Shown here: positions 7,735 to 38,406 of the stretch, piece by piece
How the letters are laid out: every line of letters starts with the position of its first letter
How positions within the stretch are numbered: position 1 is the first letter of the stretch
UHGV virus genome: UHGV-0142425
Strand: one strand, 5' to 3'
DNA: 64,000 nucleotides
DNA from: a virus
The notes under the pieces: model-generated
Databases searched by the model: none
The model's input: only the letters and a program-made list of their open reading frames with translations
Told to the model about the DNA's origin: nothing
Translations under genes and position numbers: made by a program

Positions 7735-8038
7735 AATCGCAGCGCCATTAGGCGGAGATGCCATTATCGAATTTGATGATAATGAAGAAGTTTCCGGGCG
7801 TTTAAGCATTATCTCCGGTGACATTACCGAGGACATGATCGCTGAAGCCATAGCTGGAGCAAATCCCAATAGCTATATGGGATTCGTTAACACCCTTGAT
7901 GCTCCCGCAAGTGATGTTCTCCGAACGCTGCATCTTTACGCTGGCTGGTTTGTTGATTGGCCAGCAGTAGATGGTGGCGATGAGGACGACGACGACGACG
8001 ATGATTTTGGTGATCATGTAGACCAGATCGTATATTGA
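7724..8038 (+). CDS. small protein with poly-Asp C-terminal tail (DGGDEDDDDDDD)
   Basis: 104 aa ORF overlapping ddrB stop; acidic tract encoded by GAC/GAT run near 7980-8005. Confidence 0.4.
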   Translation: MQIKIAAPLGGDAIIEFDDNEEVSGRLSIISGDITEDMIAEAIAGANPNSYMGFVNTLDAPASDVLRTLHLYAGWFVDWPAVDGGDEDDDDDDDFGDHVDQIVY

Positions 8039-8040
8039 AG

Positions 8041-8066
8041 AAATCCCGCCAATCGGCGGGATTTTT
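8041..8066. terminator. rho-independent terminator hairpin (AAATCCCGCC-AATC-GGCGGGATTT + T-run), usable from both strands
   Basis: Perfect 10-bp stem followed by TTTTT; lies between convergent operons. Confidence 0.7.
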
Positions 8067-8069
8067 ACC

Positions 8070-9164
8070 TCACGAGAAGCTCTTTTCTGATGTCAGCCAA
8101 CAGTGCTCGTGCAAATCTCTTGGTGGTTTTTCGACAAATGCCTCTTCAGCCACATCCCGCCAGGGAATTTGTTTAGCCCATTCAGCTATAGCGTTATGGT
8201 TTGCTGAGAATAACGGTATTGTATAGGCTTTCAGCCAGTCTAATGTGCTGGAGTTGTGTTTTTGAGCGTGATGTTTCGCATGGTGTTTGGCGATCACGAT
8301 CGTAGGCACTACCCATTTACTACCGTCAGTCATTGTGAAGTGCATATTACGGGGAACAGATGATTTTTCCATCAACTCCCGAATCCCAGGGAATTTCCCC
8401 AAGATCAATCGGCGATATTTATCGCTATTGCACCCACCAAACTCTTTGGCTTTATATTCAAGATATGCTTCAGAAACGAGAGGTGAATCCTCTGTGCTGA
8501 GAGTTATAGCCGTGAAAATACCAGCAGGAGTGTTCTCACTATGGGCCAACCGGTGATGCGAATCATAAAAATACCCTTTCTCTCGTTCCGATGGTTTCGA
8601 CAGCAACAGCAGGCGCGAATCATAACCGGTCAAATTGCCTGTTATCACAGCATGAGCGCGGTCGCTGATTTCTGCCGCGTTAATAACGATGAAAAGATCA
8701 TGCGGCCCAGTAAAACCAGCCAGAGATTCTTCGTTATTCAGACAATAGTTTAAATATACACATCCCCATGCTTCACTGATATGTACCAACCCTTTTTCAG
8801 GGTGCAGTTTGAAATGATTGCCAAGAAAAGGGTGTTTCTTGATAACCTGCGCCCAATAACAGCACATATAGTCAATTATATTGTTTCGACTATCGTTAAT
8901 AGCAGGAGAAACAACCACTGTACGGGAACACGAATACAGTATTGTTTGCAGGATGCTAATCACTGCCACAATAGAGGTTTCCCCAATACCATGTGGTGTG
9001 GTGGCAGTGACTTTGGCTCCGGTGTTCTTTATCGCGTTAATAATTTTTGCTTGATGAGGTGTTAACTCAATATCAAGCAACTCTTTCGCTGCCAGTTCCC
9101 AATTGTCTTTATACTGTTCTATCAGTGCTAACCAGGCAGGTTCATTCTGTATACGATTAGTCAC
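8070..9164 (-). CDS. terminase large subunit (PacB) N-terminal ATPase-domain paralog with degenerate Walker A/B
   Basis: 364 aa; collinear similarity to PacB in this window (e.g. ITGNLTGYDSRLLLLSKPSEREKGYFYDSHHRLA vs [33 protein letters not shown]) but Walker A GHGTGKS is PHGIGET and Walker B IIDEAS is VINAAE; no nuclease domain. Confidence 0.6.
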   Translation of the reverse strand: MTNRIQNEPAWLALIEQYKDNWELAAKELLDIELTPHQAKIINAIKNTGAKVTATTPHGIGETSIVAVISILQTILYSCSRTVVVSPAINDSRNNIIDYMCCYWAQVIKKHPFLGNHFKLHPEKGLVHISEAWGCVYLNYCLNNEESLAGFTGPHDLFIVINAAEISDRAHAVITGNLTGYDSRLLLLSKPSEREKGYFYDSHHRLAHSENTPAGIFTAITLSTEDSPLVSEAYLEYKAKEFGGCNSDKYRRLILGKFPGIRELMEKSSVPRNMHFTMTDGSKWVVPTIVIAKHHAKHHAQKHNSSTLDWLKAYTIPLFSANHNAIAEWAKQIPWRDVAEEAFVEKPPRDLHEHCWLTSEKSFS

Positions 9165-9951
9165 TTTCCACCTCTTCCGTGGTGTTTTCTTGCAGTTCTG
9201 TTAATGCAGCACGACACAGGTTCCGGGCCTTGGCTATAGCCACACTTTTGACTTCATCTGTCATCGTGCAGGTAATGTACTGATCGAGTTCTTCAGCGCG
9301 GATGATGCTTTTGCCAATCAGAAACTGTATTTGCCAGAGCAGATCGGCATCCATAATCAGAATTTCTGCCGGGCCTTCAGGGCCAGCCGGGAAGGAAACA
9401 TAAGACTGTTTGCCAAGGCCGATAACTCGACAACTTGCTTCAAGAATTGCGCGCTTGAGGTCTGACTTTGTAACTGAAACAGGTTGATTTTCACCTGCGA
9501 TTACGCCGTTGACATGGATGTGGAAGGGCATGTAGCTTGAAATTCGCTCTACTTTCCATACGCCAGCAAGCGATCCTTCATGCAGCACAATGGGGGTAAC
9601 AGCGAGTTTCATCTCACCATATAACTGCTGGCAGATAGCTGGATTGCTGAATACATCCAAAGGTTCACACTCAAACAGCGGTGCAATCTGCATGAGGTCC
9701 ATCATGGTCATACCTGGGGTACGAGCGGTAATGAATCTGCGCATGCCAGTATCCATTGTTCGCCAGATAGCTACACCATGCTTTTTGCTCACTTCTTCAG
9801 TAAAGCCAAGGTGGCACATGATGGTTTTTTCGATAGCCAGATCAGAGATAGAAACCTTTTCGCCTGGCACTCCATCATTATTGATGGTCACTTCGACACT
9901 CTGGCCATTACGTAGGCGGTATTGAATGGTTTTAGTATTTTGTGCTGTCAT
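9157..9951 (-). CDS. hypothetical protein, co-operonic with the PacB-like paralog
   Basis: 264 aa ORF whose stop overlaps the downstream gene start; no recognisable motif. Confidence 0.45.
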   Translation of the reverse strand: MTAQNTKTIQYRLRNGQSVEVTINNDGVPGEKVSISDLAIEKTIMCHLGFTEEVSKKHGVAIWRTMDTGMRRFITARTPGMTMMDLMQIAPLFECEPLDVFSNPAICQQLYGEMKLAVTPIVLHEGSLAGVWKVERISSYMPFHIHVNGVIAGENQPVSVTKSDLKRAILEASCRVIGLGKQSYVSFPAGPEGPAEILIMDADLLWQIQFLIGKSIIRAEELDQYITCTMTDEVKSVAIAKARNLCRAALTELQENTTEEVESD

Positions 9952-10148
9952 AGTCTTTTCTCTGCTTAAAAACTGATGTATTGCGCCTTCAGGTTGGTTA
10001 GGAATGTTTTCCCACCAGCGAAAGCAATATCTCGGGGTGTTCTATTCGTTAAAAGCGCGTGCCATTGCCAACTTTGGCGTTTTTGAGCGAGTTCGTGCTT
10101 TTGTCGGCGTCTGGACCACCGCTTTTCTTTCAGTCGTTTTTTACACAT

Positions 10149-10637
10149 TCAAAACGGAATATCGTCGTCAAAGTCCATTGGAGGTTCGTTATTGGCGTTG
10201 CTCTGAGGTTTACCGCCACCACTGTATTGCTGGTGGTTTTGAGGTTGGTTTGATTGCCCCCAGCCATTTGGGGACTGTGAATCGTCACGGCGAGCGCCGA
10301 TCATTTGCATGGTGCCGCCCTGGCTGACGATAATTTCCGTCGTGTAACGTTCTACACCGGCGTCATCTGTCCACTTACGGGTTTTAAGTTTCCCTTCGAT
10401 GTAGACCTGAGAACCTTTTCGTAAATATTCACTCGCAATTTCAGCAAGTTTCCCGAACAAAACGACTTTATGCCATTCTGTTTGCTCTTTCTGTTGGCCC
10501 GTTTGCTTGTCGCGCCATGATTCATTCGTTGCGATGCTGAGTCTTCCGACCGCGCCGCCATTTGGTATATACCTGATCTCCGGGTCTTGCCCCAGGGTAC
10601 CAATCAGGATGACTTTGTTTACACCGCGTTGTGCCAC
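10149..10637 (-). CDS. ssb: single-stranded DNA-binding protein
   Basis: 162 aa; OB-fold N-terminus, Gly/Gln-rich linker, acidic tail DFDDDIPF. Confidence 0.9.
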
Positions 10638-10656
10638 TTATCTTACCTAATAAAAT

Positions 10657-10673
10657 AAATTAATTAGAGCAAT
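10657..10673. promoter_or_regulatory. C1 repressor operator (AAATTAATTAGAGCAAT, 1 mismatch to the 17-bp consensus)
   Basis: Match to the P1 operator consensus ATTGCTCTAATAAATTT (reverse orientation); upstream of ssb and lyz. Confidence 0.6.
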
Positions 10674-10806
10674 AATGTATATCTTTGAAACGTAGCTAAC
10701 AAGTGATTTGCATTATCCTGTGCCTTCTAAAGGGATCGAGTCAGTCGGTATTGGCTGTGAATGGGTGTTTGTCCTGGAGCGTAAAAAATTCGCTTATGAG
10801 GTCTTT

Positions 10807-11364
10807 ATGAAGGGAAAAACAGCCGCAGGAGGCGGTGCAATTTGCGCTATCGCGATGATGATTACCATCGTGATGGGTAATGGCAATGTGCGAACCAACC
10901 AGGCGGGGCTTGAGCTTATCGGAAACGCTGAAGGTTGCCGACGTGATCCATACAAGTGCCCGGCGGGTGTATGGACTGACGGGATTGGTAATACACACGG
11001 GGTAACGCCAGGCGTGCGAAAAACCGACCAGCAAATCGCCGCTGATTGGGAAAAGAATATCCTGATCGCTGAACGCTGTATTAACCAGCACTTCCGGGGC
11101 AAAGACATGCCCGATAATGCCTTCAGCGCAATGACAAGCGCGGCATTCAATATGGGATGCAATAGTTTACGGACCTACTACAGCAAAGCGCGAGGCATGC
11201 GAGTCGAAACGTCCATCCACAAGTGGGCGCAGAAAGGGGAATGGGTGAATATGTGTAACCATCTCCCTGATTTTGTGAACAGTAACGGCGTCCCCCTGCC
11301 CGGGTTAAAGATTCGCCGTGAAGAAGAACGCCAGCTTTGCCTGACGGGGCTTGTCAATGAATAA
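10807..11364 (+). CDS. lyz: SAR endolysin (lysozyme)
   Basis: Track ORF 10708..11364, likely start at MKGKTAAGGG; N-terminal Gly/Ala-rich signal-anchor-release segment, T4-lysozyme-like catalytic region NAEGCRRDPY..GVWTDGIGNTHG. Confidence 0.85.
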   Translation: MKGKTAAGGGAICAIAMMITIVMGNGNVRTNQAGLELIGNAEGCRRDPYKCPAGVWTDGIGNTHGVTPGVRKTDQQIAADWEKNILIAERCINQHFRGKDMPDNAFSAMTSAAFNMGCNSLRTYYSKARGMRVETSIHKWAQKGEWVNMCNHLPDFVNSNGVPLPGLKIRREEERQLCLTGLVNE

Positions 11365-14452: not shown

Positions 14453-17400
14453 ATGAACAAGCTATCTATGGGGGTGTTTCGCTGTTCAAGTGTCAGCGAA
14501 ATATTGAAATATATTAGGGCAATAACATCTCACCGAGCGCCGATTAGATACGGCGTGGAAAAGGTGGAAGGCAAAAGCTATGACCGACTGCGCCGGGAGG
14601 CGAATCAGAAGGCGATAGATTTGCTTAATTCACTGGTGGACGGCGCGACACTGACAGATGAACAGCGCCAGATCCTGGCTGGGTACACCGGTGAAGGCGG
14701 CATTGGCGGGTCCGTCTCCGAATATTACACACCAAAGCCTATCGCTGAAGGCGTCTGGGAGATCATGAAGCTCTATGGCGCGGACGTAGGTAACACTCTG
14801 GAACCATCGGCGGGCACCGGCGTTTTTAATGAGACAAAACCGGTTGGTACGGTGATGACCGCGACTGAGATCAGCAGTGTTTCCGGTCGTATAAACCAGC
14901 TGTTACATCCGGAAGACAGCGTACAGATTTCCCCGTTCGAACAGCTGGCTATAAGCACACCTAACGATTCATTCGACCATGTTGTGGGTAACGTTCCGTT
15001 CGGCGGTCGTGATAACACACGCAACATCGATAAGCCTTACGCAGAAGAAACGGATATGGGGTCTTACTTCATGCTCCGCATGCTGGACAAGATAAAGCCA
15101 GGCGGATTCATGTGTGTGATTGTGCCGCCGTCCATTGTTTCAGGTTCAAACATGAAGCGGTTGCGCCTGCGCCTATCCCGTAAAGCTGAATTTCTTGGTG
15201 CCCACCGCTTGCCTACCGGTACTTTTGACGCAAACGGGACCAGTACGGTCGTTGATGTGGTGCTGATGCGCAAGCATCCGGCAGAGATGGCTGAGAAAAT
15301 CCCCCTGGTGGATGAAAGCACTCTTGAATCGGCAAATGTGATTTGGCCAACGTTTATTTCTGGCAAGTGGTTTGAAAAGGACGGCCGCCGGTTTGTTCAT
15401 GGCACCCAGGAGAAGGGATTCCAGGGGCGTATTGAGGTTCGTGCCGACGGGCAGATTGATAACCAGGCTCTTAAAGCGAAGCTGATTCATCGTTTCGAAA
15501 GTCGTATCGACTGGTCTTTGCTCGATATGGCTGAACCGTCACCGACCGCAGACGTTGTTGATGAAGGGGAAATGCGCCTGATTAATGGCGTATGGCAAAA
15601 ATATGCTGGTGGTCGCTGGATTGAATCTGATGCCGGGAAGGAGCTGAAGATTGATGTTGCCAGTTATGGCGCGGACAGCTGGGAGGCTCTTCAGCGTAAC
15701 CTGACTACAACAGAAGGTCGTCTCGGTATGACATTTACCCAGATGGCAAATGTCCGCGATAAGTACACCACATCAATCAGCGACGATATGGTGCAGCTGG
15801 TGGACTGGATTAACAGTCAGCCTGAAAAATACCGTGAACGCTTGTATCGCGGGGCGATGATTGGCCGGATGTTAATTGAATATCAGGATATGAAGGCCGC
15901 CGGGCATAGTGCTGAACAAATCGAACAGCAGCGCCTTTCCCTGGTATCCCGTTTGCAGGCAGAGATTGACCGTTTTGGTAACCCCGGTCGCGGTCCGATA
16001 GCGAAATTGTCGGGGAGCGGTGCGCGCGCCTGGTTTGCTTTCCGTGGTGCAATTAAGCTGGATGGCACTATTTCTGACGAGCTGACAGGAAAGCTGGTTA
16101 CGCATGATTCCAGCGCCAGTTATGACTCCACCAGCTATCAGGACACCCTGCGTTATCTCTACAGTGATCTCACTCGCGATCCAATCCAGCTCGATGATTT
16201 CCGCCTTGCGTTTACCGGCGAACTGCCAGCCAGTGATGACGAGTTGCTTAATTTATTGGCCAGCACCCCTGGCATTGCGGTTTCACCGTATGGCGGGATT
16301 GTTCCGTTTGCCCGCGCCACCAGCGGCGACATTAACGAGATAGTGGCTCCAAAACAGGAATTCCTCGCCACGCTCCCCGACGGTCCAGTAAAGAACAACG
16401 TCCTTAATCAGCTGGCAGCGATCGAAGAGAAGCGCATCAAGACGCCAGCAGAGAATATCCGGTTTAAGCTCAATAGCCGTTGGTTCGACCGTTCCGTCAT
16501 TCTGGAATTTTTGCAGGAAAACGGCTATCCGGATCTGCGCTATGTGCAGTCAGTGCAGCTGGAAGGCGACGAAATGGTTTCTGACACCTATCACGGTGGT
16601 GATGGCCTGTTCGTCGGGCACCGATACGGTGTCGTCCAGCGCAAGGATAAAGACACAGGCGAGATCCGCTACGAGTGGGACCGTAAATCAGGTGAAAACG
16701 CGACCGGGTTCCCGGCACAGCTGGAAAAGTATCTCAATGGTGCGCGTATTGGTGGCAAAGATAGCGCGACGGCGAACGGCTACCGCGAGCAGATGGCACT
16801 GCTTGAGGACCAGTTCAATAAGTGGATCAAGACGCACGATCGCTACGATGAGCTGGTTGCCAAATACAACGATGTTTTCAATAGCAATATTCCGTATGAA
16901 CACTCTGGTGATCCGCTTGGGTTGAAGGGATTAAGCGGTAAGCGTCAGCCATTTGATTACCAGAATAGCGAGGTGCGCCGACTGTCCGAAGATGGGCGCG
17001 GCATCCTGGGCTTCGGCACCGGGCTGGGTAAAACTACGACCGCGCTGGCGCTTGAGGCGTTCAACTATGAGAACGGTCGCTCCACCCGTACTGCGTATGT
17101 AGTGCCTAAATCAGTGCTGGAAAACTGGTATTACGAAGCAAAAGAATTCCTGAGTGAAGAGGCATTCAGTAACTACCTGTTCGTCGGTCTTGATGTGCTG
17201 ATGGATGGCGATCAGATTCGCCAGGTGCCGGTGCTCGATGAGAACGGTAAACCAGTTCTTGGTACTGATGGCACTCCAGTTATGCGCGATGCTCTTAAGC
17301 TGGCAGATGAAGCCACTATCACGGCGCGGATGAACGCGATCCCGCACTCAAATTACCGTGCAGTCGTGTTTACCAAAGAACAATACGCCCGCATTCCGCT

Positions 17401-20400
17401 ACGTGATGACACCGTAGATGAGCATGCACAGGATATGCTTTATGACTTCGTTGCCGCCGGGCGCGTAGCCAGCGCAATGGACTCCGACTCCCACCGCAAA
17501 GAGGCCGCGCGTCGCCGGGTATTGTCGGAGTATTCAGATACCGGCACCGAAAAAGCAGAGAGGTATCCGTACTTTGAGGATATGGGCTTCGATAGTGTGA
17601 TCGCCGACGAAGGTCACAACTACCGCAATAGCTATAAAAATGGTCGCGAAGCGTCACAACTGGCCTATCTGCCCACCAGCGCGGTGGCGCAATCGGCGCG
17701 GGATATGGCAATCAAAAACGCGTACCTGATGAAAAAGAATGGCGGGCGCGGACCGGTTCTCCTGACTGCAACGCCAGTCGTTAACACCCCGATCGATGCA
17801 TACAACATGCTTTCTCATGTTCTGCCGAAGGAATACTGGCAGAAGATGGGGATCTACAGTCCTGATGACTTCGTTAAATTCTTCGGCAAGACCAGGCTGG
17901 AAACGGTACAGAAAATCAGCGGTGAAGTTGAAGAAAAAATGGCGCTGGTGGGCTTTGAAAACCTTGATGCGCTGCGCGGTATATTCCATCGCTGGGTAAC
18001 GCTTAAAACGGCGGAAGACGTTAAGGATACCGTGGAGATCCCGGAGCTGGACGAACACCAGCAGGATGCACCACTTACTGAAGAACAACTGGCGGCGTAT
18101 GAAGAATTGCGTCAGCAGGCGGAAGCGGCAGCCAAAGCCAACAATGGCGTAACGACCTCGGTCAATGAAGACGGCGTGATTGAGCACGAGAAAGCCCGTC
18201 CGATCTTCTCAATAATCAGGGATATGGACCGCGTATGTACTGACATGGACCTGTACTATCGCCGGATCACCTATCGTTTCCTGCCGGAGTACGCCGATGC
18301 GGTGCAGCAGCTGGCGGACAGTTTGCCTAAACAAGCCACCAGCGAAGACGACGACAGTGATGATTCAATCACGCAGCAATCGCAATACTCCCTGATAGAT
18401 AAGGGCGAGTTTATTCAGTTGCAGGTTCCGGAAGCGTTTGAGCAGGAAGTGAATAAGCGCCTGGCCAAGTTTGGCATTGACGAACAGACCGTAACTCACC
18501 CCGTTACACCCAAATACGCGAAGCTGATCGCCACGCTGAAGGAGTTTTTCCCGGAAGGTAAGCAAATCATCTTCACGGACGAAAAAACGCAGCACCAGAA
18601 GCTCAAGCGCATTATCTGCAATGCTCTTAACCTTGAACCTTCAAAGGTGGGGATCCTGAATGCTCAGACGGTTGCCGAGGCAGGTAAAACCGGTAAGAAA
18701 CTGAAATCGGTTAAACCGCCGAAAGAGTTACCGGATGAACCAACAGATGCACAGATAGCGAAATACAACGAGCAAATGGCTCTGTATGACGCCTATATCG
18801 CGCAGCAAAATGAAATGTCGTTGGGCGGTCTGGAAAAGATTGCAGCAGACTTCCAGGAGGGCCGGACTCCGATCATCATCTGCAACAAAAAGGCAGAGGT
18901 GGGTATCAACCTGCATCGAGGAACGACTGACATCCATCATCTGACGTTGCCGTGGACTCCAGCCAGTATCGCACAACGTAACGGTCGCGGTGCCCGAGTT
19001 GGCTCCAACCGTGCAAGCGTTCGCGTTCACTACTACTGCGGCAAGGGTTCTTTCGATGAATACCGACTGAAGACGCTGAAGCGTAAAGCAGGCTGGATCT
19101 CCGATATCCTCCGTTCAGATAAGTCAGAAATGGAGAACGCCGACGCCAACGATATGATCGAAATGCAGATGTATACCGCTAAGGATGATGGCGAACGTCT
19201 GGCAATGATGCAGGTTCAAATGGATAAGGCGAAAGCCGCGCAACGCGCTCGCCAGAAAGAACAGGCTACTATCGACCTTCAGAACTACATCAAGGCACAG
19301 CACGCAGCTGGTGAGGATGTGGAGGTACTTACCGCTGAATTAGAGCGAAGCAAAGCGGAATTTGAAAAGACCACCGCCGAGGTAGCTAAATTCAAACAGG
19401 CGGTAATGGCCAAAGCAGCTGATAACGCAGACTGGAAGGCCCGCTGGGGGAGTGTCCATCACACAGACCGTACGTTGTTAGCACAGTATCGCGCGTCGTT
19501 GAAAAGCGCCATTCAGCGCAAGGCTAATATCTCTCAAGCCATCTCCCGCTATGAGAAATTATTGAACCGTACTCAGAAGGCCGCGACGGATATCAAACGC
19601 CTGCGCCCGCTGGTGGAGGATGCAATAAATAAAGGCATTCTGGATGTTGATCCTGACCTGGTTAACCATGCGAGTGAGTTCCTTGTTATCGGCGATCGCT
19701 CATGGCGTGTAGGCCAATACTACGATTGTGCCGGTGATATCGTTCGCATTAAGTCGCTGGACTTCGACAGCCAGCGCGCAGACGTGGAGATCATCTTTAC
19801 CTTAAAAGGCACCAAATCGGGTAACTGGGATGTGAAGACGCTGGATAAACAGATTGATGTAACTCCCGATGAAGATGCTGTTATGCAGAAAATCAGTGGT
19901 GGCGTCTCCATCGCCGGGATTAACGACATCATTTCCTGTGACGATTTCTACCGTTTCCAGCAGCGCGGCATGATCAAAATCACTGACTCGTACGGCGTCC
20001 AGGCTACAGCGTCAGGCTACAGCATTGATTTTGTTGGTACCTATACGGACCCACTGAAGCATGCGGTTTACCCGGATCGCCGTGACGGCGCGCTGAAGTC
20101 GTCAATTGCAAAATGGGTGCTTGGTATGATGTCGGAAGGGAATAACCGCCAGATCCGTTCGGCAGAAACATTCCTGGTTGAACTGTTTGGCTCCAATTAT
20201 GGTGATGTAATCGCGTCATACGGAGATACGCTATCCCCTGAAGCAATTCAGGAGAAAATAGCGGATGCGATCGCCAGAATGCCGGAAAAAACAAGCCAGG
20301 GGGCTACTCGTAACGGGGATTCTGAACTTGAAGTCACCAATGCCATTTTCGGTACCAATGAGTTCCGGGCGTCAGATTATGAGATCACCACAGCACAGTT

Positions 20401-21220
20401 TGGCACCATTGGCATTTACAGTAATAAAGACGAGATCAAGCAGGCAATGGACGCAGCAAGTGCGCGCATTGCAGCAGAACGGAAAGCCAATCTGAATCAT
20501 GCAGTCGCCGCGCTGACTCAATCGTGGGTAACAGCAATCAGGGAGGCCGCCACCACAGGGAAAATCACACCTGCAATAGCGGATGTCGTAAACGACGGCT
20601 CTAAATTTATGGATGCCTATCAAATGGATGCGGTGAAGTTGCCATCAGCCTATGGTCAACTCAGCTATCGCATGACCTACAACCTGGTATCAATGTTTTC
20701 CGACCTTGCCATCCTTGGGCTGGTGGATCTTAACGAGGTTACGCCGGAATTGCTCAGCATGCGCAAGAATCATGTGGAGATATTGCAGAGAATTAACACG
20801 GTTCTTGCCGGACGCACCGATGAAGAGAAACAGGCCGACGCTGATCGGATAAACCTGGCCCTTGGCAACATCACGGAGGAAGAGATTGCCGCCAGAAACG
20901 AGAAACAAGAAGAGTTATCATCAATACAGGGTGATGCCACCAGCATAGCTCAGTCTCTTGGTCTGAATTATCGCGTATCCACCGCCGACCTGAAGATGAT
21001 GTACGCACCAAAATTCGCCGCTGGCGAGGTATTTGGGCTTCAGGAAGCCTCAGGCATGAAAGGCGTTCTTTTCCGTGCGAAAGACGCAATCAAGGCGAAA
21101 TTCGGCGCTCGCTGGCTGCCTGCGAAGGCGAAGAACAGCGATTTCCCGGGTAACTGGTGGATTATCGAGACAAAACACAACGTGGCGGACGTTCTGGCCG
21201 TCATCCAACAATACGCATAA
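14453..21220 (+). CDS. darB: DarB, giant antirestriction protein (N6-adenine methyltransferase + SF2 helicase domains)
   Basis: 2255 aa; AdoMet motif LEPSAGTGVF and NVPFG near N-terminus; helicase Walker A GFGTGLGKTT and DEGH box. Confidence 0.85.
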   Translation: MNKLSMGVFRCSSVSEILKYIRAITSHRAPIRYGVEKVEGKSYDRLRREANQKAIDLLNSLVDGATLTDEQRQILAGYTGEGGIGGSVSEYYTPKPIAEGVWEIMKLYGADVGNTLEPSAGTGVFNETKPVGTVMTATEISSVSGRINQLLHPEDSVQISPFEQLAISTPNDSFDHVVGNVPFGGRDNTRNIDKPYAEETDMGSYFMLRMLDKIKPGGFMCVIVPPSIVSGSNMKRLRLRLSRKAEFLGAHRLPTGTFDANGTSTVVDVVLMRKHPAEMAEKIPLVDESTLESANVIWPTFISGKWFEKDGRRFVHGTQEKGFQGRIEVRADGQIDNQALKAKLIHRFESRIDWSLLDMAEPSPTADVVDEGEMRLINGVWQKYAGGRWIESDAGKELKIDVASYGADSWEALQRNLTTTEGRLGMTFTQMANVRDKYTTSISDDMVQLVDWINSQPEKYRERLYRGAMIGRMLIEYQDMKAAGHSAEQIEQQRLSLVSRLQAEIDRFGNPGRGPIAKLSGSGARAWFAFRGAIKLDGTISDELTGKLVTHDSSASYDSTSYQDTLRYLYSDLTRDPIQLDDFRLAFTGELPASDDELLNLLASTPGIAVSPYGGIVPFARATSGDINEIVAPKQEFLATLPDGPVKNNVLNQLAAIEEKRIKTPAENIRFKLNSRWFDRSVILEFLQENGYPDLRYVQSVQLEGDEMVSDTYHGGDGLFVGHRYGVVQRKDKDTGEIRYEWDRKSGENATGFPAQLEKYLNGARIGGKDSATANGYREQMALLEDQFNKWIKTHDRYDELVAKYNDVFNSNIPYEHSGDPLGLKGLSGKRQPFDYQNSEVRRLSEDGRGILGFGTGLGKTTTALALEAFNYENGRSTRTAYVVPKSVLENWYYEAKEFLSEEAFSNYLFVGLDVLMDGDQIRQVPVLDENGKPVLGTDGTPVMRDALKLADEATITARMNAIPHSNYRAVVFTKEQYARIPLRDDTVDEHAQDMLYDFVAAGRVASAMDSDSHRKEAARRRVLSEYSDTGTEKAERYPYFEDMGFDSVIADEGHNYRNSYKNGREASQLAYLPTSAVAQSARDMAIKNAYLMKKNGGRGPVLLTATPVVNTPIDAYNMLSHVLPKEYWQKMGIYSPDDFVKFFGKTRLETVQKISGEVEEKMALVGFENLDALRGIFHRWVTLKTAEDVKDTVEIPELDEHQQDAPLTEEQLAAYEELRQQAEAAAKANNGVTTSVNEDGVIEHEKARPIFSIIRDMDRVCTDMDLYYRRITYRFLPEYADAVQQLADSLPKQATSEDDDSDDSITQQSQYSLIDKGEFIQLQVPEAFEQEVNKRLAKFGIDEQTVTHPVTPKYAKLIATLKEFFPEGKQIIFTDEKTQHQKLKRIICNALNLEPSKVGILNAQTVAEAGKTGKKLKSVKPPKELPDEPTDAQIAKYNEQMALYDAYIAQQNEMSLGGLEKIAADFQEGRTPIIICNKKAEVGINLHRGTTDIHHLTLPWTPASIAQRNGRGARVGSNRASVRVHYYCGKGSFDEYRLKTLKRKAGWISDILRSDKSEMENADANDMIEMQMYTAKDDGERLAMMQVQMDKAKAAQRARQKEQATIDLQNYIKAQHAAGEDVEVLTAELERSKAEFEKTTAEVAKFKQAVMAKAADNADWKARWGSVHHTDRTLLAQYRASLKSAIQRKANISQAISRYEKLLNRTQKAATDIKRLRPLVEDAINKGILDVDPDLVNHASEFLVIGDRSWRVGQYYDCAGDIVRIKSLDFDSQRADVEIIFTLKGTKSGNWDVKTLDKQIDVTPDEDAVMQKISGGVSIAGINDIISCDDFYRFQQRGMIKITDSYGVQATASGYSIDFVGTYTDPLKHAVYPDRRDGALKSSIAKWVLGMMSEGNNRQIRSAETFLVELFGSNYGDVIASYGDTLSPEAIQEKIADAIARMPEKTSQGATRNGDSELEVTNAIFGTNEFRASDYEITTAQFGTIGIYSNKDEIKQAMDAASARIAAERKANLNHAVAALTQSWVTAIREAATTGKITPAIADVVNDGSKFMDAYQMDAVKLPSAYGQLSYRMTYNLVSMFSDLAILGLVDLNEVTPELLSMRKNHVEILQRINTVLAGRTDEEKQADADRINLALGNITEEEIAARNEKQEELSSIQGDATSIAQSLGLNYRVSTADLKMMYAPKFAAGEVFGLQEASGMKGVLFRAKDAIKAKFGARWLPAKAKNSDFPGNWWIIETKHNVADVLAVIQQYA

Positions 21221-21253: not shown

Positions 21254-21694
21254 ATGGCCACACTATCTGATACAATAAAACCGAATAAAACATATCTTGA
21301 GGCGGTACTCCGTACAGCGTTGTTAGGAAAGACAGAAGACGAATACGTTGATTTCTTCCTGTCAGGGCTACGCGGGCGATTACTGAAAAATCCCCGCCTG
21401 TACCGCAGCTACGGCCCATACTGGCCGGAAATTAAAAAATTATTACTGGAGCGCGGTTATGGTAATTTCGGTCGTCTCGTTGACCGTGACGTTCGCAAAA
21501 TTTACCGTTATGACCGCCCGGCGCTGACGCTCATAGCCGCGACGCTCTACAGCCAGGAGCGTTTTGATAATGGTCAGATATACTCAGCCTGGCATTTACT
21601 GCCTGTGCCTGAAGAGGTTGACGACCAGGACTATGAGTTTGAGTCTTACGATTTGGAAGTTGAAGCCTTAGCACAGGCTGGAGAGAAAACTTGA
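21254..21694 (+). CDS. ulx: Ulx-like protein
   Basis: 146 aa ORF between darB and the lxc-sized ORF; P1 synteny. Confidence 0.5.
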   Translation: MATLSDTIKPNKTYLEAVLRTALLGKTEDEYVDFFLSGLRGRLLKNPRLYRSYGPYWPEIKKLLLERGYGNFGRLVDRDVRKIYRYDRPALTLIAATLYSQERFDNGQIYSAWHLLPVPEEVDDQDYEFESYDLEVEALAQAGEKT

Positions 21695-21939
21695 AAAAGC
21701 GATACTACACAGTAAAGCATGGGACGCTACGAGCATTACAAGAGTTTGCTGACAAGCATAACGTTGAGGTGCGCAGGGAAGGGGGAAGTAAAGCTCTGCG
21801 CATGTACCGCCCGGACGGGAAATGGCGGACGGTCGTCGATTTCAAAACTAACAGCGTTCCCCAGGGCGTCCGTGACCGGGCATTCGAGGAATGGGAGCAG
21901 ATCATCATAGATAACGCATTGCTTCTGAATGCTGATTAA
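21691..21939 (+). CDS. lxc: Lxc-like small protein (modulator of C1)
   Basis: 82 aa, start overlaps ulx stop; P1 synteny. Confidence 0.5.
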   Translation: MKKRYYTVKHGTLRALQEFADKHNVEVRREGGSKALRMYRPDGKWRTVVDFKTNSVPQGVRDRAFEEWEQIIIDNALLLNAD

Positions 21940-21949
21940 TAATCATTTA

Positions 21950-21971
21950 AAGCCCATATGATATGGGCTTA
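21950..21971. terminator. perfect hairpin AGCCCATAT-G-ATATGGGCT after lxc
   Basis: 9-bp perfect palindrome; separates the lxc operon from the inserted gene. Confidence 0.55.
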
Positions 21972-22021
21972 AACAACAGGATCGATATACAGTGTTAGTT
22001 AAATATATAGGCGAGAGTTAT

Positions 22022-23032
22022 ATGGATAAACCTTGGCCGGGCATGCACATTAGAACATCTTGTCTGGAGGATGGTTTCTTTAGAGCAACGCAACCAAAGT
22101 ATCTTAATGATCCGTCGAGTGAGTCGCGACTTCTTCCATTTTTTAATAAATTTTCACCAGCCGATTACGCATGGGCTAGAAATGAATTTAAGAAAATGCA
22201 ACGAGATCCATCTTATGTCCCATCTATACAAGAGTTAGAGTATTATTTAAAACCTTGCGGGAAACGATACGGAGAGGATTTTCCACACTTGTTAATCAAT
22301 GAAGGTTTTACCTCAATGGATTCATATGATGAATCTAAACTCCAAGAAATAGTAACGTACCTTAACGATTATTTAGTAGAAGCCGTAAGCTGTCATCTTG
22401 GTGTGTTCTCTCTATCAAAAAGTGATTGCAATCTACACATGTGGACTCATTATGCATCGATAGGAAAGGGGTTTGCTGTAGTTTTCGATGAAACACACGA
22501 TTTTTTCAAAATATATCGGCCGTGTGATGTTAGTTATAATCCAGAAGATAGAGCATCTGTAACCTATTATAAAGGCGCTGTGCGATTTAATGGCTATCCT
22601 GCGCCATCGAGGAATATAGATATAAAGAATAAAGATAATACATTGCATGGGATCTTAAATCGAGATTCAGTTCGCGAGCTTTTTATTAATAGGCTTCTTT
22701 ATACAAAAGGTGAAGAGTGGCTTCCTGAAAATGAAAGTAGAATTATTTTTCCATTGGCTGATTGCGAGAGAAAAATAGGAAGCATTGTCTCTCCATCGAT
22801 TGATGACTGCCTATTAAATGAGTATCCTGATGTTTTTCATGACTATCATGAAATTAACTTAAAGAAAATTCCTTTTTCTGCATTCAAGCAAATTACCTTA
22901 GGGTATAACATGACTGAAAAAGATAAAAATATAATTTTAGATAAAGTTAGTTCGAATAAAGAATTGTCTCACGTCAACGTATTACATTCAAAACTTGATA
23001 TATACGGAAAGGTTGTGGTTAAGCCCATGTAA
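22022..23032 (+). CDS. hypothetical protein occupying the res-mod slot; candidate defence/exclusion gene
   Basis: 336 aa from ATG 22022 (346 aa from GTG 21992 in the ORF track); SD-like AGGCGAGAG upstream; AT-rich; central motif CNLHMWTHYASIGKGFAVVFDE; no recognisable catalytic motif. Confidence 0.6.
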   Translation: MDKPWPGMHIRTSCLEDGFFRATQPKYLNDPSSESRLLPFFNKFSPADYAWARNEFKKMQRDPSYVPSIQELEYYLKPCGKRYGEDFPHLLINEGFTSMDSYDESKLQEIVTYLNDYLVEAVSCHLGVFSLSKSDCNLHMWTHYASIGKGFAVVFDETHDFFKIYRPCDVSYNPEDRASVTYYKGAVRFNGYPAPSRNIDIKNKDNTLHGILNRDSVRELFINRLLYTKGEEWLPENESRIIFPLADCERKIGSIVSPSIDDCLLNEYPDVFHDYHEINLKKIPFSAFKQITLGYNMTEKDKNIILDKVSSNKELSHVNVLHSKLDIYGKVVVKPM

Positions 23033-23064
23033 TAATACGCTTATGTCTACACTTCATGATAAAT

Positions 23065-23086
23065 ACCTTCCTTAACTTAGGAAGGT
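23065..23086. terminator. hairpin CCTTCC-N8-GGAAGG between convergent genes
   Basis: Inverted repeat followed by T-rich tract; lies between the inserted gene and mat. Confidence 0.5.
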
Positions 23087-23129
23087 TAGTTGTAGGTTTA
23101 CGCAGAAAGTAACAAATAACCTTCGTAGG

Positions 23130-23798
23130 TTATAGAATATTATTCTTTCCGGTGAGTATTCCTTGAGGAACTCTAGCGCATCCCATAATTTGAGTTTTCT
23201 TGATGATGTTTATATATGACGCTATCAGCGATGAGTCATCACGACTATCCACTTCACAAGCCATTGCCCTGATGTAGTCGGCGCTGGCAACGTTGTTGTA
23301 TTCCGTCGCAAAGCAACAGAGTAACGTCAGAACATGCTCTGTCGTTATTTCGCTCCAATTGATGTTGAAAAATTCATCGCCTTTTTTATCGTGTTCGGAA
23401 TCGAAGATGCTTTGGTGGAGGATGTATTTGCCGGATTCCTTGCGCGGTAACTTGATTGCTTTCTGGCGTTCCAGCTCCTTATAAATCTGCATTGCCTCAA
23501 TTAGTACCGGCCTGCCGTTCATGAAGGGATCGCGCAACCTTACACGCTGGCCAACTCGACCAGTAATAAAGCTGTTTTCCTCTTCCACCAGCACGATAAA
23601 ACCCTTTTCCTCTTTTTCTCGCAATTCGCGCAGCAGCTGGAGTTCCATGTCGCGGCGGCGTTCAGGGTAGCTGGTCCGCTCAGCCATTATCAGCTCGTTA
23701 TTGATCCATGCAGCAGTCATTGACGCCGGTTTGCCGACGCTCATCGAAACAACGCATATTTTCTTATCCATAGCGCCCCTACAAAAAAGAAAAGCCAC
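23130..23798 (-). CDS. mat: Mat-like particle maturation protein
   Basis: 222 aa ORF (likely start at MDKKICVV); position next to ref as in P1. Confidence 0.5.
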   Translation of the reverse strand: MAFLFCRGAMDKKICVVSMSVGKPASMTAAWINNELIMAERTSYPERRRDMELQLLRELREKEEKGFIVLVEEENSFITGRVGQRVRLRDPFMNGRPVLIEAMQIYKELERQKAIKLPRKESGKYILHQSIFDSEHDKKGDEFFNINWSEITTEHVLTLLCCFATEYNNVASADYIRAMACEVDSRDDSSLIASYINIIKKTQIMGCARVPQGILTGKNNIL

Positions 23799-23959: not shown

Positions 23960-24520
23960 TTAGTGCATTATGTTTGCCATCTCATAGGCGTCAGCCAGTA
24001 ACTCCATCTCTGACTTGTTCAGCAGGGTGAATTCTTTCTTGCCTCCAACCACACCATCGGCATGAACAGGGACCAGCCAGGGATATTTTGCTCTTACTTC
24101 AGCCGGTGCTGCATGCTGGTGGTGCCATCTACAAAGTGGCAATTGCTTTTTATGACAACCCGGCGCGGTACGACCGGCGATATGGTGCAGAGATACCTCA
24201 TTAGATATTACTCCATGCATATAGCAGGCAATGCAGGGGAGAGCGCCAAGAGCATTGGCGATGCGCCGTTCCTCCGCCGTTGGTGTTCTCCCCTTCAAGC
24301 CACGAGATTTTATTTTTACCGCGCTTTTCCGCGTTTTGCTGGCTGGTGGGCGCTCTTTCTGTTTAGCGATACGGCGGTCGATAGTATCTCGCATTTTCTG
24401 ATATTGAGATTCTCGCCAGACCGGATCAGCCAACTTCTCCCGTTGCCGAGCGATCGCTCGTTCTCTGGCTGCCTTCTGCCACTTGCGGCACTGTTCAATT
24501 TTTTGTTCGATTGTTTTCAT
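23960..24520 (-). CDS. ref: Ref recombination enhancement function (HNH endonuclease)
   Basis: 186 aa; basic N-terminus, Cys/His-rich HNH core CIACYMHG..HHIAGRT..CRWHHQ. Confidence 0.85.
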   Translation of the reverse strand: MKTIEQKIEQCRKWQKAARERAIARQREKLADPVWRESQYQKMRDTIDRRIAKQKERPPASKTRKSAVKIKSRGLKGRTPTAEERRIANALGALPCIACYMHGVISNEVSLHHIAGRTAPGCHKKQLPLCRWHHQHAAPAEVRAKYPWLVPVHADGVVGGKKEFTLLNKSEMELLADAYEMANIMH

Positions 24521-25129: not shown

Positions 25130-26161
25130 CTAATCGCCATCTTCCAGCAGGCGCACCATTGCCCCCGTTTCACTATCCAGATTACGGATATAGTTCATGA
25201 CAATATTTACGTTGGTCCAGCCACCAGCTTGCATGATCTCCGGTATTGAAACTCCGGCGCGGGCCATATCTCGCGCGGCTCCGACACGGGCACTGTGTCC
25301 AGACCAGGCCAGGTACCTCTGACCAGAGTCATCCTTAGCCCCGTAAATCAATCGGTGAGTTGCTTCAAAAATCCCTTCCAGGGCGCGAGTTGATAGCTGG
25401 CTGGTGGATGATGGCGAGGCAACACCATTTTTTCTGACCCGGCAAAACAAGTAGTTATTCGGATCATCAGCCACACCAGAGACAGAAATCCATCGCTCGA
25501 CCAGTTTAGTTACCCCCAGGCTAAGTGCCTTCTCTACACCTGCGGTGCTAACCAGCGTTTTCGTTCTGCCAATATGGATTAACATTCTCCCACCGTCAGT
25601 ACGTGAGATATCTTTAACCCTGATCCTGGCAATTTCGGCTATACGTAACAGGGTGTTATAAGCAATCCCCAGAAATGCCAGATTACGTATATCCTGGCAG
25701 CGATCGCTATTTTCCATGAGTGAACGAACCTGGTCGAAATCAGTGCGTTCGAACGCTAGTGCCTGTTTTGCACGTTCACCGGCATCAACGTTTTCTTTTC
25801 GGATCCTCCGCATGACCAGTGAAACAGCATTGCTGTCACTTGGTCGTGGCAGCCCGGACCGACGATGAAGCATGTTTAGCTGGCCCAAATGTTGCTGGAT
25901 AGTTTTTACTGCCAGACCGCGCGCCTGAAGATATAGAAGATAATCGCGAACATCTTCAGGTTCTGCGGGAAACCATTTCCGGTTATTCAACTTGCACCAT
26001 GCCGCCCATGACCGGCAAACGGACAGAAGCATTTTCCAGGTATGCTCAGAAAAAGCCTGGCGATCCCTGAACATATCCATCAGGTTCTTGCGAACCTCAT
26101 CACTCGTTGCATCGACCGGCAATGCAGGCAAATTTTGGTGTACGGTCAGTAAATTGGACAT
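25130..26161 (-). CDS. cre: Cre tyrosine site-specific recombinase
   Basis: 343 aa, MSNLLTVHQNLPALPVD...; C-terminal catalytic region with HSARVGAARD and MNYIR; adjacent exact loxP. Confidence 0.97.
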   Translation of the reverse strand: MSNLLTVHQNLPALPVDATSDEVRKNLMDMFRDRQAFSEHTWKMLLSVCRSWAAWCKLNNRKWFPAEPEDVRDYLLYLQARGLAVKTIQQHLGQLNMLHRRSGLPRPSDSNAVSLVMRRIRKENVDAGERAKQALAFERTDFDQVRSLMENSDRCQDIRNLAFLGIAYNTLLRIAEIARIRVKDISRTDGGRMLIHIGRTKTLVSTAGVEKALSLGVTKLVERWISVSGVADDPNNYLFCRVRKNGVASPSSTSQLSTRALEGIFEATHRLIYGAKDDSGQRYLAWSGHSARVGAARDMARAGVSIPEIMQAGGWTNVNIVMNYIRNLDSETGAMVRLLEDGD

Positions 26162-36656: not shown

Positions 36657-37320
36657 GGTCCGCCTCATGCTTTTCAGCCACCAGCGGCAATAAAGCCCTG
36701 GCCATCTTATGAACCAATAGTGCATCAATAATGCCAAGCGTATGCCCCGGCTTAATGTTTAATGCCGCCTCAAGGTGACACCTTTCCAAGCCACTTTTCT
36801 CGGCTTGTTTATGATGATCTGGCGTAATAACGTCGCCCAAAACACGGCTAATTCTTTCTCGTAATTGCTGGGTGCCAGCACACTTGATCGCTGTATCGTG
36901 GAGACGGTTAACCAGTTCGCGATAAACATGCGGCTTAATGCGGATACGTCCACCGGTGACGCCCTTTCCTGGCGCTGACACCGAACTATCCGGAATATCC
37001 GGATAGTTGCCAGCCTCGTAAGCTACCCGCAGCCAGTGCATGAATGTTTCAGTGGACACACAACCACAGTCCACATCGATTTTTCCGCGTTGCTGTTCCA
37101 GCCACTGCTCAAAATTCAATCTACACGTATTACTTTCATGTTGCTCTTTTTGTCTCAAGGCCAGTACCTGTTGGGCCAGTTCCAGAACGATACCGGGTGA
37201 CGCTAACCTCTCAAATTCCAATAAATAGTTTGTGTCAGGATGACAAGTAGCCTCGCCTGCAAAAAATACCAATTGCTGTAAGTATGCTGTCGTTAGAGTA
37301 GTCATTTCTTTTTGCGCCAT
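36640..37320 (-). CDS. hypothetical protein
   Basis: 226 aa ORF. Confidence 0.4.
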   Translation of the reverse strand: MAQKEMTTLTTAYLQQLVFFAGEATCHPDTNYLLEFERLASPGIVLELAQQVLALRQKEQHESNTCRLNFEQWLEQQRGKIDVDCGCVSTETFMHWLRVAYEAGNYPDIPDSSVSAPGKGVTGGRIRIKPHVYRELVNRLHDTAIKCAGTQQLRERISRVLGDVITPDHHKQAEKSGLERCHLEAALNIKPGHTLGIIDALLVHKMARALLPLVAEKHEADHANES

Positions 37321-37676
37321 TTCTTTTCACATTCCTTAGTCCATTTTTCAATGTTCATTTTGGCAATATCAGTCATTCCGTCACCCAAGAAATACTTTTT
37401 CCGGTATGTCTTGCACTTAAACCACACTACAACAGCCACCAGCCAGAAAATAAAAGGCCATACAGCAATGCCAACGACAGCCGCGATAAAGCCCAATAGC
37501 CATAAATGAAGCTCTCCAACTTCTGTTTCCGGCAATATTCTTAAAGAATTAAACAGCAGGGTGAACGAATGATCGTATGCATTGGCAGTATAAGACATGC
37601 AATCCATATAATTAAAGTCATAGCCTGCGGCTGCCGCCCATAATGGGCGGTCAAGAAAATGTTTTAGTGTCATCAT
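37302..37676 (-). CDS. hypothetical membrane protein
   Basis: 124 aa with two hydrophobic helices and a Lys-rich tail. Confidence 0.4.
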   Translation of the reverse strand: MMTLKHFLDRPLWAAAAGYDFNYMDCMSYTANAYDHSFTLLFNSLRILPETEVGELHLWLLGFIAAVVGIAVWPFIFWLVAVVVWFKCKTYRKKYFLGDGMTDIAKMNIEKWTKECEKKWRKKK

Positions 37677-37682
37677 ATTAAT

Positions 37683-38072
37683 TTAAGGTTCAGACCAGTT
37701 ATCTTCAATAGCAATGCTTAATCTTTGTAGCCATTCTGCTAATTTCAGCATTGCTTCTCTTTCGCTTAAACCACGAGGAAAATCATCAAGCGATATTGTT
37801 GGCTTGAAGCCCCCGTAATTATCCATTTCAACGGTCAGATTTTGCTCCAGTACGGTATTCCTTACGCGGCTATTGTGGCGAAGCAAATATACTGAACGTG
37901 ATTTATTGGTTTTGTGGTCGAGCTGATATTCGGTAAGTATCATCTGGCTTTTGCCATGACTATTACCTCTCCACATACTTACCTCACTTAATAAAACAAC
38001 TCCATGCGTAGTTGATGATTTTTTCCCACGTAATATAAATCTGCACTCCGGCAGTAAAACCAAAGCCAACAA
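37683..38072 (-). CDS. hypothetical protein
   Basis: 129 aa ORF. Confidence 0.35.
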   Translation of the reverse strand: MLALVLLPECRFILRGKKSSTTHGVVLLSEVSMWRGNSHGKSQMILTEYQLDHKTNKSRSVYLLRHNSRVRNTVLEQNLTVEMDNYGGFKPTISLDDFPRGLSEREAMLKLAEWLQRLSIAIEDNWSEP

Positions 38073-38154
38073 TTGCTGAAAAAATCAAAACATTTACTTT
38101 TGACATTATAAATTTTCTCTCGGTGTCGTAGGTGATAGCACCATAATTGATAAT

Positions 38155-38406
38155 TTAGTGAGTTAGCAGCTCCATTTTTTGGATGATTTCCGCATGAGCA
38201 TCATCGTTATCAACACTTAACTCGTTTAATGCCTCTCGCACCACATCAACTTCTTCTGGTTGGAAGAAATCATCTCGGTAGTCACCAAATAGAACCGAAA
38301 CAAGCCTGCCACCAGCAACATCAAGATTGGCGCTAACAGGTGGCTCTTTACCATCCTCAAATTCGACTACAAAAGTTATTTTTCCCATCGTTACCACCAG
38401 CGACAA
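38155..38406 (-). CDS. small acidic hypothetical protein
   Basis: 83 aa ORF. Confidence 0.35.
   Translation of the reverse strand: MSLVVTMGKITFVVEFEDGKEPPVSANLDVAGGRLVSVLFGDYRDDFFQPEEVDVVREALNELSVDNDDAHAEIIQKMELLTH

Follow-up and report, generated by a model that had tools for sequence, protein, structure and literature searches.

A DUF2971 gene between lxc and mat of a P1-like phage-plasmid as a candidate single-gene defence cargo

Aristaios, a DUF2971 protein of 316 aa encoded by a single gene on the Lactococcus plasmid pUCCL641, provides phage resistance of the abortive-infection type (Grafakou et al., 2024, PMC11381338; PMC13064643) and blocks phage transcription (PMC11381338, PMC13064643). 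Proteins of the DUF2971 family have also been published as predicted DarT-like ADP-ribosyltransferases with a conserved Y and an E-x-E motif (PMC12522546), and PADLOC lists the DUF2971 candidate PDC-S31, PDC families being defined by their embedding in known defence systems (bioRxiv 10.1101/2024.01.29.577857); the name 'PDC-S31' itself returned no match in a literature search. Here, a DUF2971 gene located between lxc and mat in the virus genome UHGV-0142425 was analysed within a stretch of 64,000 nucleotides (the window), which is a P1-like phage-plasmid; its genes were read from a list of open reading frames (ORFs). A preliminary description, made from the letters of the sequence, had proposed the gene as an undescribed defence or exclusion cassette. 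As the family has a published predicted chemistry (PMC12522546), a validated member in Aristaios (PMC11381338, PMC13064643) and an entry in PADLOC, 'undescribed' no longer applies.

On balance, the sequence comparisons and a structural model favour the view that a P1-like phage-plasmid carries the gene as a single-gene defence cargo, exchanged horizontally, and that the gene product has an ADP-ribosyltransferase-like core. It is a good but unsurprising defence candidate, its domain, predicted chemistry and defence role being already in the literature. The gene and its family domain are:

21992-23032, + strand: DUF2971 gene, 346 aa from a GTG start, stop codon included (ORF, PF11185, PDC-S31, PHROG 1762 and conserved N-terminus)
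22439-22744, + strand: region matched by PF11185 in Pfam, aa 150-251, which contains the sequence block quoted in the preliminary description

Family membership and predicted fold

The DUF2971 signature tentatively proposed for the centre of the protein proved correct, as the Pfam model PF11185 (DUF2971) matched across the quoted block with a score of 28.6 bits (gathering score, 22), the entire 89-position model being covered. Each of the 38 aligned members of the family likewise exceeded the gathering score of PF11185 (best E value 2.5e-10). Four PADLOC models of PDC-S31 also matched, with E values from 2.8e-16 to 1.3e-6, among them, judged by E value, PDLC04994 (2.8e-16) and PDLC04990 (1.7e-14, across aa 108-314). 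The PHROGs family detected was phrog_1762, of unknown function (E value 1.4e-69), and no family matched in NCBIfam. Thus, a characterised non-defence family, which the preliminary description had named as possible counter-evidence, was found neither in Pfam nor in NCBIfam.

The closest homologues form a tight subfamily of ~350 aa, 36-54% identical and mainly from Gammaproteobacteria. An exhaustive profile search detected 8,790 representative clusters (50% identity) at E values of 0.001 or lower, but 39 at 1e-30 or lower; therefore, by these scores the P1 protein belongs to a small long-form branch of the very large DUF2971 family. PDC-S31 resembles it in being a single-gene DUF2971 candidate, put forward from association with defence systems and without an obligatory partner, although PDC-S31 is a predicted system and its models, of 208-273 positions, match mainly aa 108-174 (336-aa numbering) of the 346-aa protein. 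This partial match would place the P1 protein in a longer sister subfamily. Aristaios shares with it the arrangement of a single DUF2971 protein on a mobile element (Table 1 of PMC11381338), whereas the host belongs to the Firmicutes in that case and to the Enterobacterales here, and Aristaios is the shorter of the two by 30 aa.

A distant DUF2971 protein, 22-28% identical, was also detected in SSU5-type phage-plasmids, which are unrelated to the P1-like ones (NC_018843, Salmonella phage SSU5, 32677-33273), and there it is present in ~180 plasmids of ~110 kb from Klebsiella, Enterobacter and E. coli. DUF2971 is therefore a recurrent cargo of phage-plasmids.

A confident AlphaFold2 model, computed from the alignment of the family (predicted local distance difference test 91.3, predicted template modelling score 0.85), pointed to an ADP-ribosyltransferase-like core with DarT and Tpt1 as the closest solved folds, an assignment that is consistent but remote. 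Further ADP-ribosyltransferases (TreX, CteC, scabin, LT and pertussis-like toxins) appeared lower among the fold matches. Foldseek searches against the PDB and the BFVD viral models gave no match at an E value of 0.001 or lower, the weak top matches being short fragments similar to tRNA-splicing endonucleases. Nothing meaningful was obtained either when HMMER profiles of two alignments, one of close homologues (A1) and one of a divergent set reaching ~24% identity (A2), were compared with all PDB sequences.

The preliminary description saw no recognisable motif in the protein; nevertheless, a candidate ADP-ribosyltransferase-like set composed of R, S-x-S plus Y, and E-x-E is present, in the following segments:

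22076-22123, + strand: most conserved segment, F29-F-R31-A-T-Q-P-K-Y-L-N-D-P-S-S-E44, lowest-entropy window with a strand at 29-31 in the model; candidate motif I, R replacing H
22409-22453, + strand: S140-L-S142, at the end of strand 136-142 in the model, followed by a helix with W151, H153 and Y154; candidate motif II
22727-22741, + strand: E246-N-E248-S-R250, opening strand 248-254 in the model; candidate catalytic E-x-E, motif III

Positions R31, S140, W151, Y154, Y182, K239, W243, E246, E248 and R250 are among those invariant in A1. Even in A2, Y154, Y182, K239, W243, E248 and R250 were invariant and R31 and E246 were conserved in at least 90% of the members, E246 being replaced by Q in one of them, which is the classical Q/E-x-E alternation. 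From their order and setting in sequence and model, we infer that R31, S140/Y154 and E246-x-E248 correspond to ADP-ribosyltransferase motifs I, II and III. Conservation in the family peaks at aa 26-44, and the most variable segments, aa 205-238 and 257-284, lie on either side of the E-x-E; that these hypervariable segments form a specificity or trigger-sensing surface is speculation.

Compared with DarT, the P1-slot protein contains large insertions of helical structure at aa 56-135, ends in an additional alpha/beta region (aa 257-346) and shows Arg instead of His in motif I. It also differs from the DarTG system in that no DarG macrodomain antitoxin or other partner was found at the locus or in the neighbourhoods of its homologues. 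No DarT model in Pfam or PADLOC matched at an E value of 1 or lower, DUF2971 and PDC-S31 being the only matches. Taking sequence and model together, it is rather probable that the protein is a catalytically active ADP-ribosyltransferase, and a nucleic-acid target is possible, at a clearly lower level of confidence.

The lxc-mat interval as a cargo slot

In P1 itself, the interval between lxc and mat is filled by mod, IS5 and res. The preliminary description had equated the res-mod interval of P1 with the position of the DUF2971 gene, and the comparison confirmed this, with IS5 as an additional occupant. The genes flanking the slot are carried by 708 of the 72,556 plasmids in PLSDB, which constitute the P1-like set, and the cargos identified between them were as follows:

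DUF2971 gene: 89 PLSDB records, all at 95% identity or higher
YaaC plus a 169-aa protein: 85 PLSDB records
SIR2 protein: 66 PLSDB records, matching PADLOC PDC-S25 and ThsA-like models
PIN protein (as JL22 gp7): 23 PLSDB records, matching PDC-S34
RelA/SpoT protein (CapRel): 22 PLSDB records
EcoP1I-type res: 108 PLSDB records, 48 of them at 99% identity or higher
No cargo: RCS47, with 39 nt in the slot

The RelA/SpoT protein of the P1-like phage SJ46 is CapRelSJ46, identical to PDB 7ztb across all 373 residues and validated as a fused toxin-antitoxin that acts against phages (PMC9712102). It occupies exactly the same lxc-mat slot and, like the DUF2971 product, is a single polypeptide, of ~370 aa, which has to keep its toxic enzymatic domain in check until infection (Zhang et al., 2022, PMC9712102), the trigger being the major capsid protein. 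In contrast to the DUF2971 protein, it has an unrelated fold and chemistry, that of a RelA/SpoT pyrophosphokinase acting on tRNA, and it is encoded on the opposite strand. EcoP1I, the product of P1 res-mod, is the classical defence cargo of the slot and has the same position and the same orientation as lxc, but it consists of two genes over ~5 kb, discriminates self from non-self via methylation and has no homology to the DUF2971 protein.

The lxc-mat interval is thus a fixed site between core genes that holds unrelated cargos, known defence systems included, as has been described for the hotspots of P2/P4. A variable slot with defence contents had been anticipated, and it is documented by EcoP1I in P1 and CapRelSJ46 in SJ46; likewise, the turnover of cargo was evident from the comparison of the slot across P1-like elements and from the PLSDB counts. 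The DUF2971 gene does not belong to the conserved P1 backbone, as it was detected in 89 PLSDB records versus 708 with the flanks. In complete E. coli genomes, it was found in 62 out of 5,426 (~1%), with 63 of the 64 copies on plasmids, and the P1-like copies differ by only 2-7 codons. A recent survey of P1-like phage-plasmids named type III restriction-modification, dGTPase, PrrC and CapRel, and did not mention DUF2971.

The two-gene cargo with YaaC (NZ_CP023381, locus 1099-2648, - strand) encodes a YaaC-family protein of 346 aa and the 169-aa protein, which showed a sub-threshold match to nucleoside 2-deoxyribosyltransferases. The pair had no match in PADLOC, and as a candidate for defence it may have been described less than the DUF2971 gene has.

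The limits of the exchanged DNA were defined by comparison with P1 (NC_005856), as blastn identity ends exactly where the lxc stop codon does (21939) and restarts at 23248 inside mat. Therefore, the exchangeable unit runs from 21940 to 23247, so that the final 39 mat codons form part of it. Its elements and flanks are:

21691-21939, + strand: lxc, conserved left flank (ORF list; P1 blastn match ends at 21939)
21940-23247, no strand assigned: exchangeable low-G+C segment of 1308 bp, with hairpin 1, the DUF2971 gene, hairpin 2 and the last 39 mat codons, without identity to P1 across the span
23130-23247, - strand: variable 3' end of mat, its final 39 codons, travelling with the cargo (P1 identity from 23248; C-terminus differs by cargo)
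23248-23771, - strand: conserved part of mat, right flank, 96.9% identity to P1

Seven slot variants were compared, namely this window, P1, SJ46, RCS47, JL22, a SIR2 plasmid and a YaaC plasmid. In all of them the sequences diverge directly after the lxc stop, and the C-terminal 39 residues of Mat, constant in length, are present in a different version in each. Because these last codons vary among the variants and share the low G+C of the cassette, the right recombination boundary is within the 3' end of mat, an essential-looking gene, each cargo bringing its own Mat C-terminus. The search for direct or inverted repeats marking a transposition of the cassette yielded only short, chance-like matches, and the cassette appears to move by recombination in the flanking genes.

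The AT-rich, foreign-looking composition that had been estimated by hand was confirmed by calculating guanine plus cytosine content (G+C), and the same value at third codon positions (GC3), across the window. The DUF2971 ORF has a G+C of 35.4% and a GC3 of 28.8%, compared to a G+C of 48.4% for the whole 64-kb window and a GC3 of 57.8% for darB, and its region is the lowest-G+C 1-kb stretch of the 64 kb (0.5th percentile). In agreement with the boundary described above, G+C was 35% in the cassette and 36% in the 3' end of mat, versus 49% in the remainder of mat.

Outside the P1-like elements, homologues of the gene were found in several other contexts. Homologues from Salmonella and Enterobacter (46-47% identical) are located between the V (baseplate) and S (tail) genes of P2-like prophages, on the opposite strand to the late genes. 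This S-V position (homologue locus coordinates 8001-9050) is the site of the non-essential orf30 in P2 (P2 locus 940-1725). That P2 Orf30 could itself be a DUF2971 protein was considered and rejected, as it gave no Pfam match and an hhalign probability of 0.2%. The S-V gap of P2-like prophages behaves as a second cargo slot. Among the chromosomal homologues, one from Serratia lies at a prophage end adjoining smpB, near a 347-aa protein (10113-11156) that matches PDC-S64 (E value 1.6e-37), and of two Klebsiella homologues one is in an islet adjoining a 509-aa ABC ATPase (9785-11314) that matches HEC-04 (E value 7e-42) and the other is within an AlpA/H-NS island. No conserved partner gene was found across the homologue contexts examined or in the cassette; with no neighbour common to the different contexts, the protein most simply works alone.

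Proposed function and competing explanations

The above results are compatible with a cytoplasmic DUF2971 protein with an NAD+-dependent ADP-ribosyltransferase-like core, which would be made in the lysogen, most likely via read-through from the lxc promoters, and would stay silent until a second phage infects the cell. Once activated, it would ADP-ribosylate either a nucleic acid, whether DNA or RNA, in the manner of DarT or Tpt1, or else some part of the expression machinery, in such a way that phage gene expression stops and abortive infection guards the clonal population with the plasmid prophage. In this scheme, the hypervariable aa 205-238 and 257-284 beside the E-x-E would be candidate surfaces for recognition of trigger or substrate. 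The action would be like that of Aristaios (abortive infection and transcription block), and the chemistry closest to that of DarT or Tpt1. The defence role as such is considered fairly probable.

A more specific version of the scheme is proposed with little confidence. In it, the ~350-aa enterobacterial subfamily would be an antitoxin-free sensor-plus-effector, in which a DarT/Tpt1-like nucleic-acid ADP-ribosyltransferase is self-inhibited by its hypervariable insertions near the E-x-E loop or its C-terminal domain until a phage component binds. If true, this self-contained protein would be the ADP-ribosylating counterpart of the fused toxin-antitoxin CapRel of the same P1 slot, and no such enzyme would have been characterised before it in the P1-type and P2-type prophages of E. 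coli and Salmonella.

Several points weigh against a defensive ADP-ribosyltransferase. The phenotype of Aristaios has been demonstrated, whereas the P1-slot protein and its ~350-aa subfamily are known from sequence and model, and the relatedness of the two is supported by shared Pfam membership; Lactococcus was absent both from the ten most frequent genera of 272 plasmid records found by tblastn and from 119 profile hits. The PDC-S31 models match only part of the protein, three of the four being partial. The guilt by association derived from a cargo slot is suggestive only, and the putative catalytic role of R31, Y154 and E248 was deduced from their order and the modelled secondary structure. 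A scan of the 52 nt between lxc and the start codon revealed no sigma-70-like promoter. Finally, a study in Legionella predicts ~18% of DUF2971 proteins as secreted effectors (PMC12522546).

Among the competing explanations, the most probable is a variant that keeps the defensive role and changes the chemistry, in which the enzyme would be of the R-S-E type that ADP-ribosylates proteins, as do cholera toxin, C3 and T4 Alt/Mod, and upon infection would modify a protein of host or phage, for instance RNA polymerase or a translation factor, instead of a nucleic acid. The R-S-E-like motif set suggests a protein target, and this variant is regarded as unlikely, though not negligible.

The gene could also be a non-immune passenger, selfish or neutral, such as a stabilising toxin, an effector that acts on other cells independently of contact, or a remnant that has lost its catalysis, kept in a tolerant slot. 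Such a role would agree with the effectors predicted in the Legionella survey, and the near clonality of the cassette across 89 plasmids (identity of at least 98%) means that recent spread, not selection, could explain its frequency. Against this, no antitoxin partner, secretion signal or partner gene was found in any context, two cargo slots of unrelated prophages hold the gene through independent events, and the candidate catalytic residues are strongly conserved among relatives 24-50% identical, arguing for a maintained enzymatic function. A passenger role is thus judged improbable.

Least probable, by a small degree, is that the protein serves the phage itself as an ADP-ribosyltransferase for takeover or counter-defence, possibly tied to the Dar genes darB and ulx, as phages do carry host-takeover enzymes of this class (T4 Alt, ModA and ModB) and the gene is directly downstream of darB-ulx-lxc on the same strand; but the other occupants of the slot are defence genes, close homologues outside phages are found beside defence genes, those in P2-like prophages are on the strand opposite to the late operons, the arrangement to be expected if they are expressed in lysogeny, and the gene is absent from most P1-like elements, hence dispensable for the phage cycle. 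The contexts of the homologues and the conserved candidate catalytic residues speak against both this role and that of a passenger.

Confirmation of the defensive ADP-ribosyltransferase would raise the number of validated DUF2971 defence proteins to two, this one being the first from Gram-negative bacteria, in a tractable host for which large phage collections allow quick mapping of trigger and target. The lxc-mat interval of P1-like phage-plasmids would likewise be documented as a compact hotspot for single-gene defence, and the elements that carry the DUF2971 cargo also spread resistance genes. No new class of system would be opened, even if confirmed.

Start codon, transcription and surrounding features

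The genes surrounding the slot in the window, all from the ORF list, are:

14453-21220, + strand: darB
21254-21694, + strand: ulx
23130-23771/23798, - strand: mat, with its stop side at 23130
23960-24520, - strand: ref
25130-26161, - strand: cre

RefSeq annotates a mat of 213 aa here. As the preliminary description had stated, one gene is present between the lxc stop at 21939 and the 3' end of mat at 23130; the ORF list shows a single long ORF between the two stops, ending with the stop codon at 23030-23032, and no second ORF of 80 aa or more was found in the cassette.

The start at ATG 22022 given in that description, which yields a protein of 336 aa, was not supported, as the frame is open from a GTG ~30 nt upstream, at 21992, yielding 346 aa. 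The ten residues ahead of the ATG are MLVKYIGESY, and the homologues share an MLVKY(Y/L)G N-terminus (37 aligned), with V3, K4, Y5 and G7 each present in at least 90% of them. A candidate Shine-Dalgarno sequence precedes the GTG:

21978-21981, + strand: AGGA, read from the sequence, 10 nt 5' of GTG 21992

On account of the conserved N-terminal residues and of this AGGA, GTG 21992 is most likely the true start. The RefSeq start is inconsistent, with 336 aa in NZ_CP049847 (47480-48490) and 346 aa for the cluster representative P0001. In two GenBank records labelled 'phage P1', with DNA 98.8% identical, the ORF was left unannotated (MH422554.1, 2141-3178; MH445380.1, 103014-104051).

Two hairpins that had been noticed on either side of the gene are real when folding energies are compared with those of shuffled sequences:

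21950-21970, + strand: hairpin 1, 9-bp stem and 3-nt loop, without U-tract; -12.1 kcal/mol, z -3.95
23065-23086, no strand assigned: hairpin 2, 8-bp stem and 6-nt loop, located where the DUF2971 gene and mat converge; -11.8 kcal/mol, z -2.1

None of 200 shuffles folded as well as hairpin 1, and hairpin 2 is terminator-like on the - strand. Six of the seven slot variants, all but P1, open with their own G+C-rich hairpin after the lxc stop (this window, SJ46, RCS47, JL22 and the SIR2 and YaaC variants), the position being kept and the sequence being different each time. Because each type of cargo has its own hairpin there, hairpin 1 probably marks either the lxc operon's end or the edge of the cassette, rather than bracketing a private transcription unit. 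A hairpin conserved in position and variable in sequence is as expected of a terminator of the lxc operon brought by each cassette.

Consequently, the separate transcription unit initially attributed to the gene was not sustained, given this interpretation of hairpin 1 and the empty promoter scan. In the P1 annotation, the -35 element of the P2mod promoter falls within lxc and the -10 covers the lxc stop; the equivalent -10 sequence here would be TAATAA. Transcription by read-through from the lxc promoters, or from a hybrid promoter with the -35 of P2mod, is possible. C1 operator matches were detected at 15 sites in the window, with none in the slot.

Elsewhere in the window, the sole other stretch below 40% G+C is 37075-38385, with small ORFs on the - strand (124, 129 and 83 aa), one of them with hydrophobic segments, and this may be another acquired patch.

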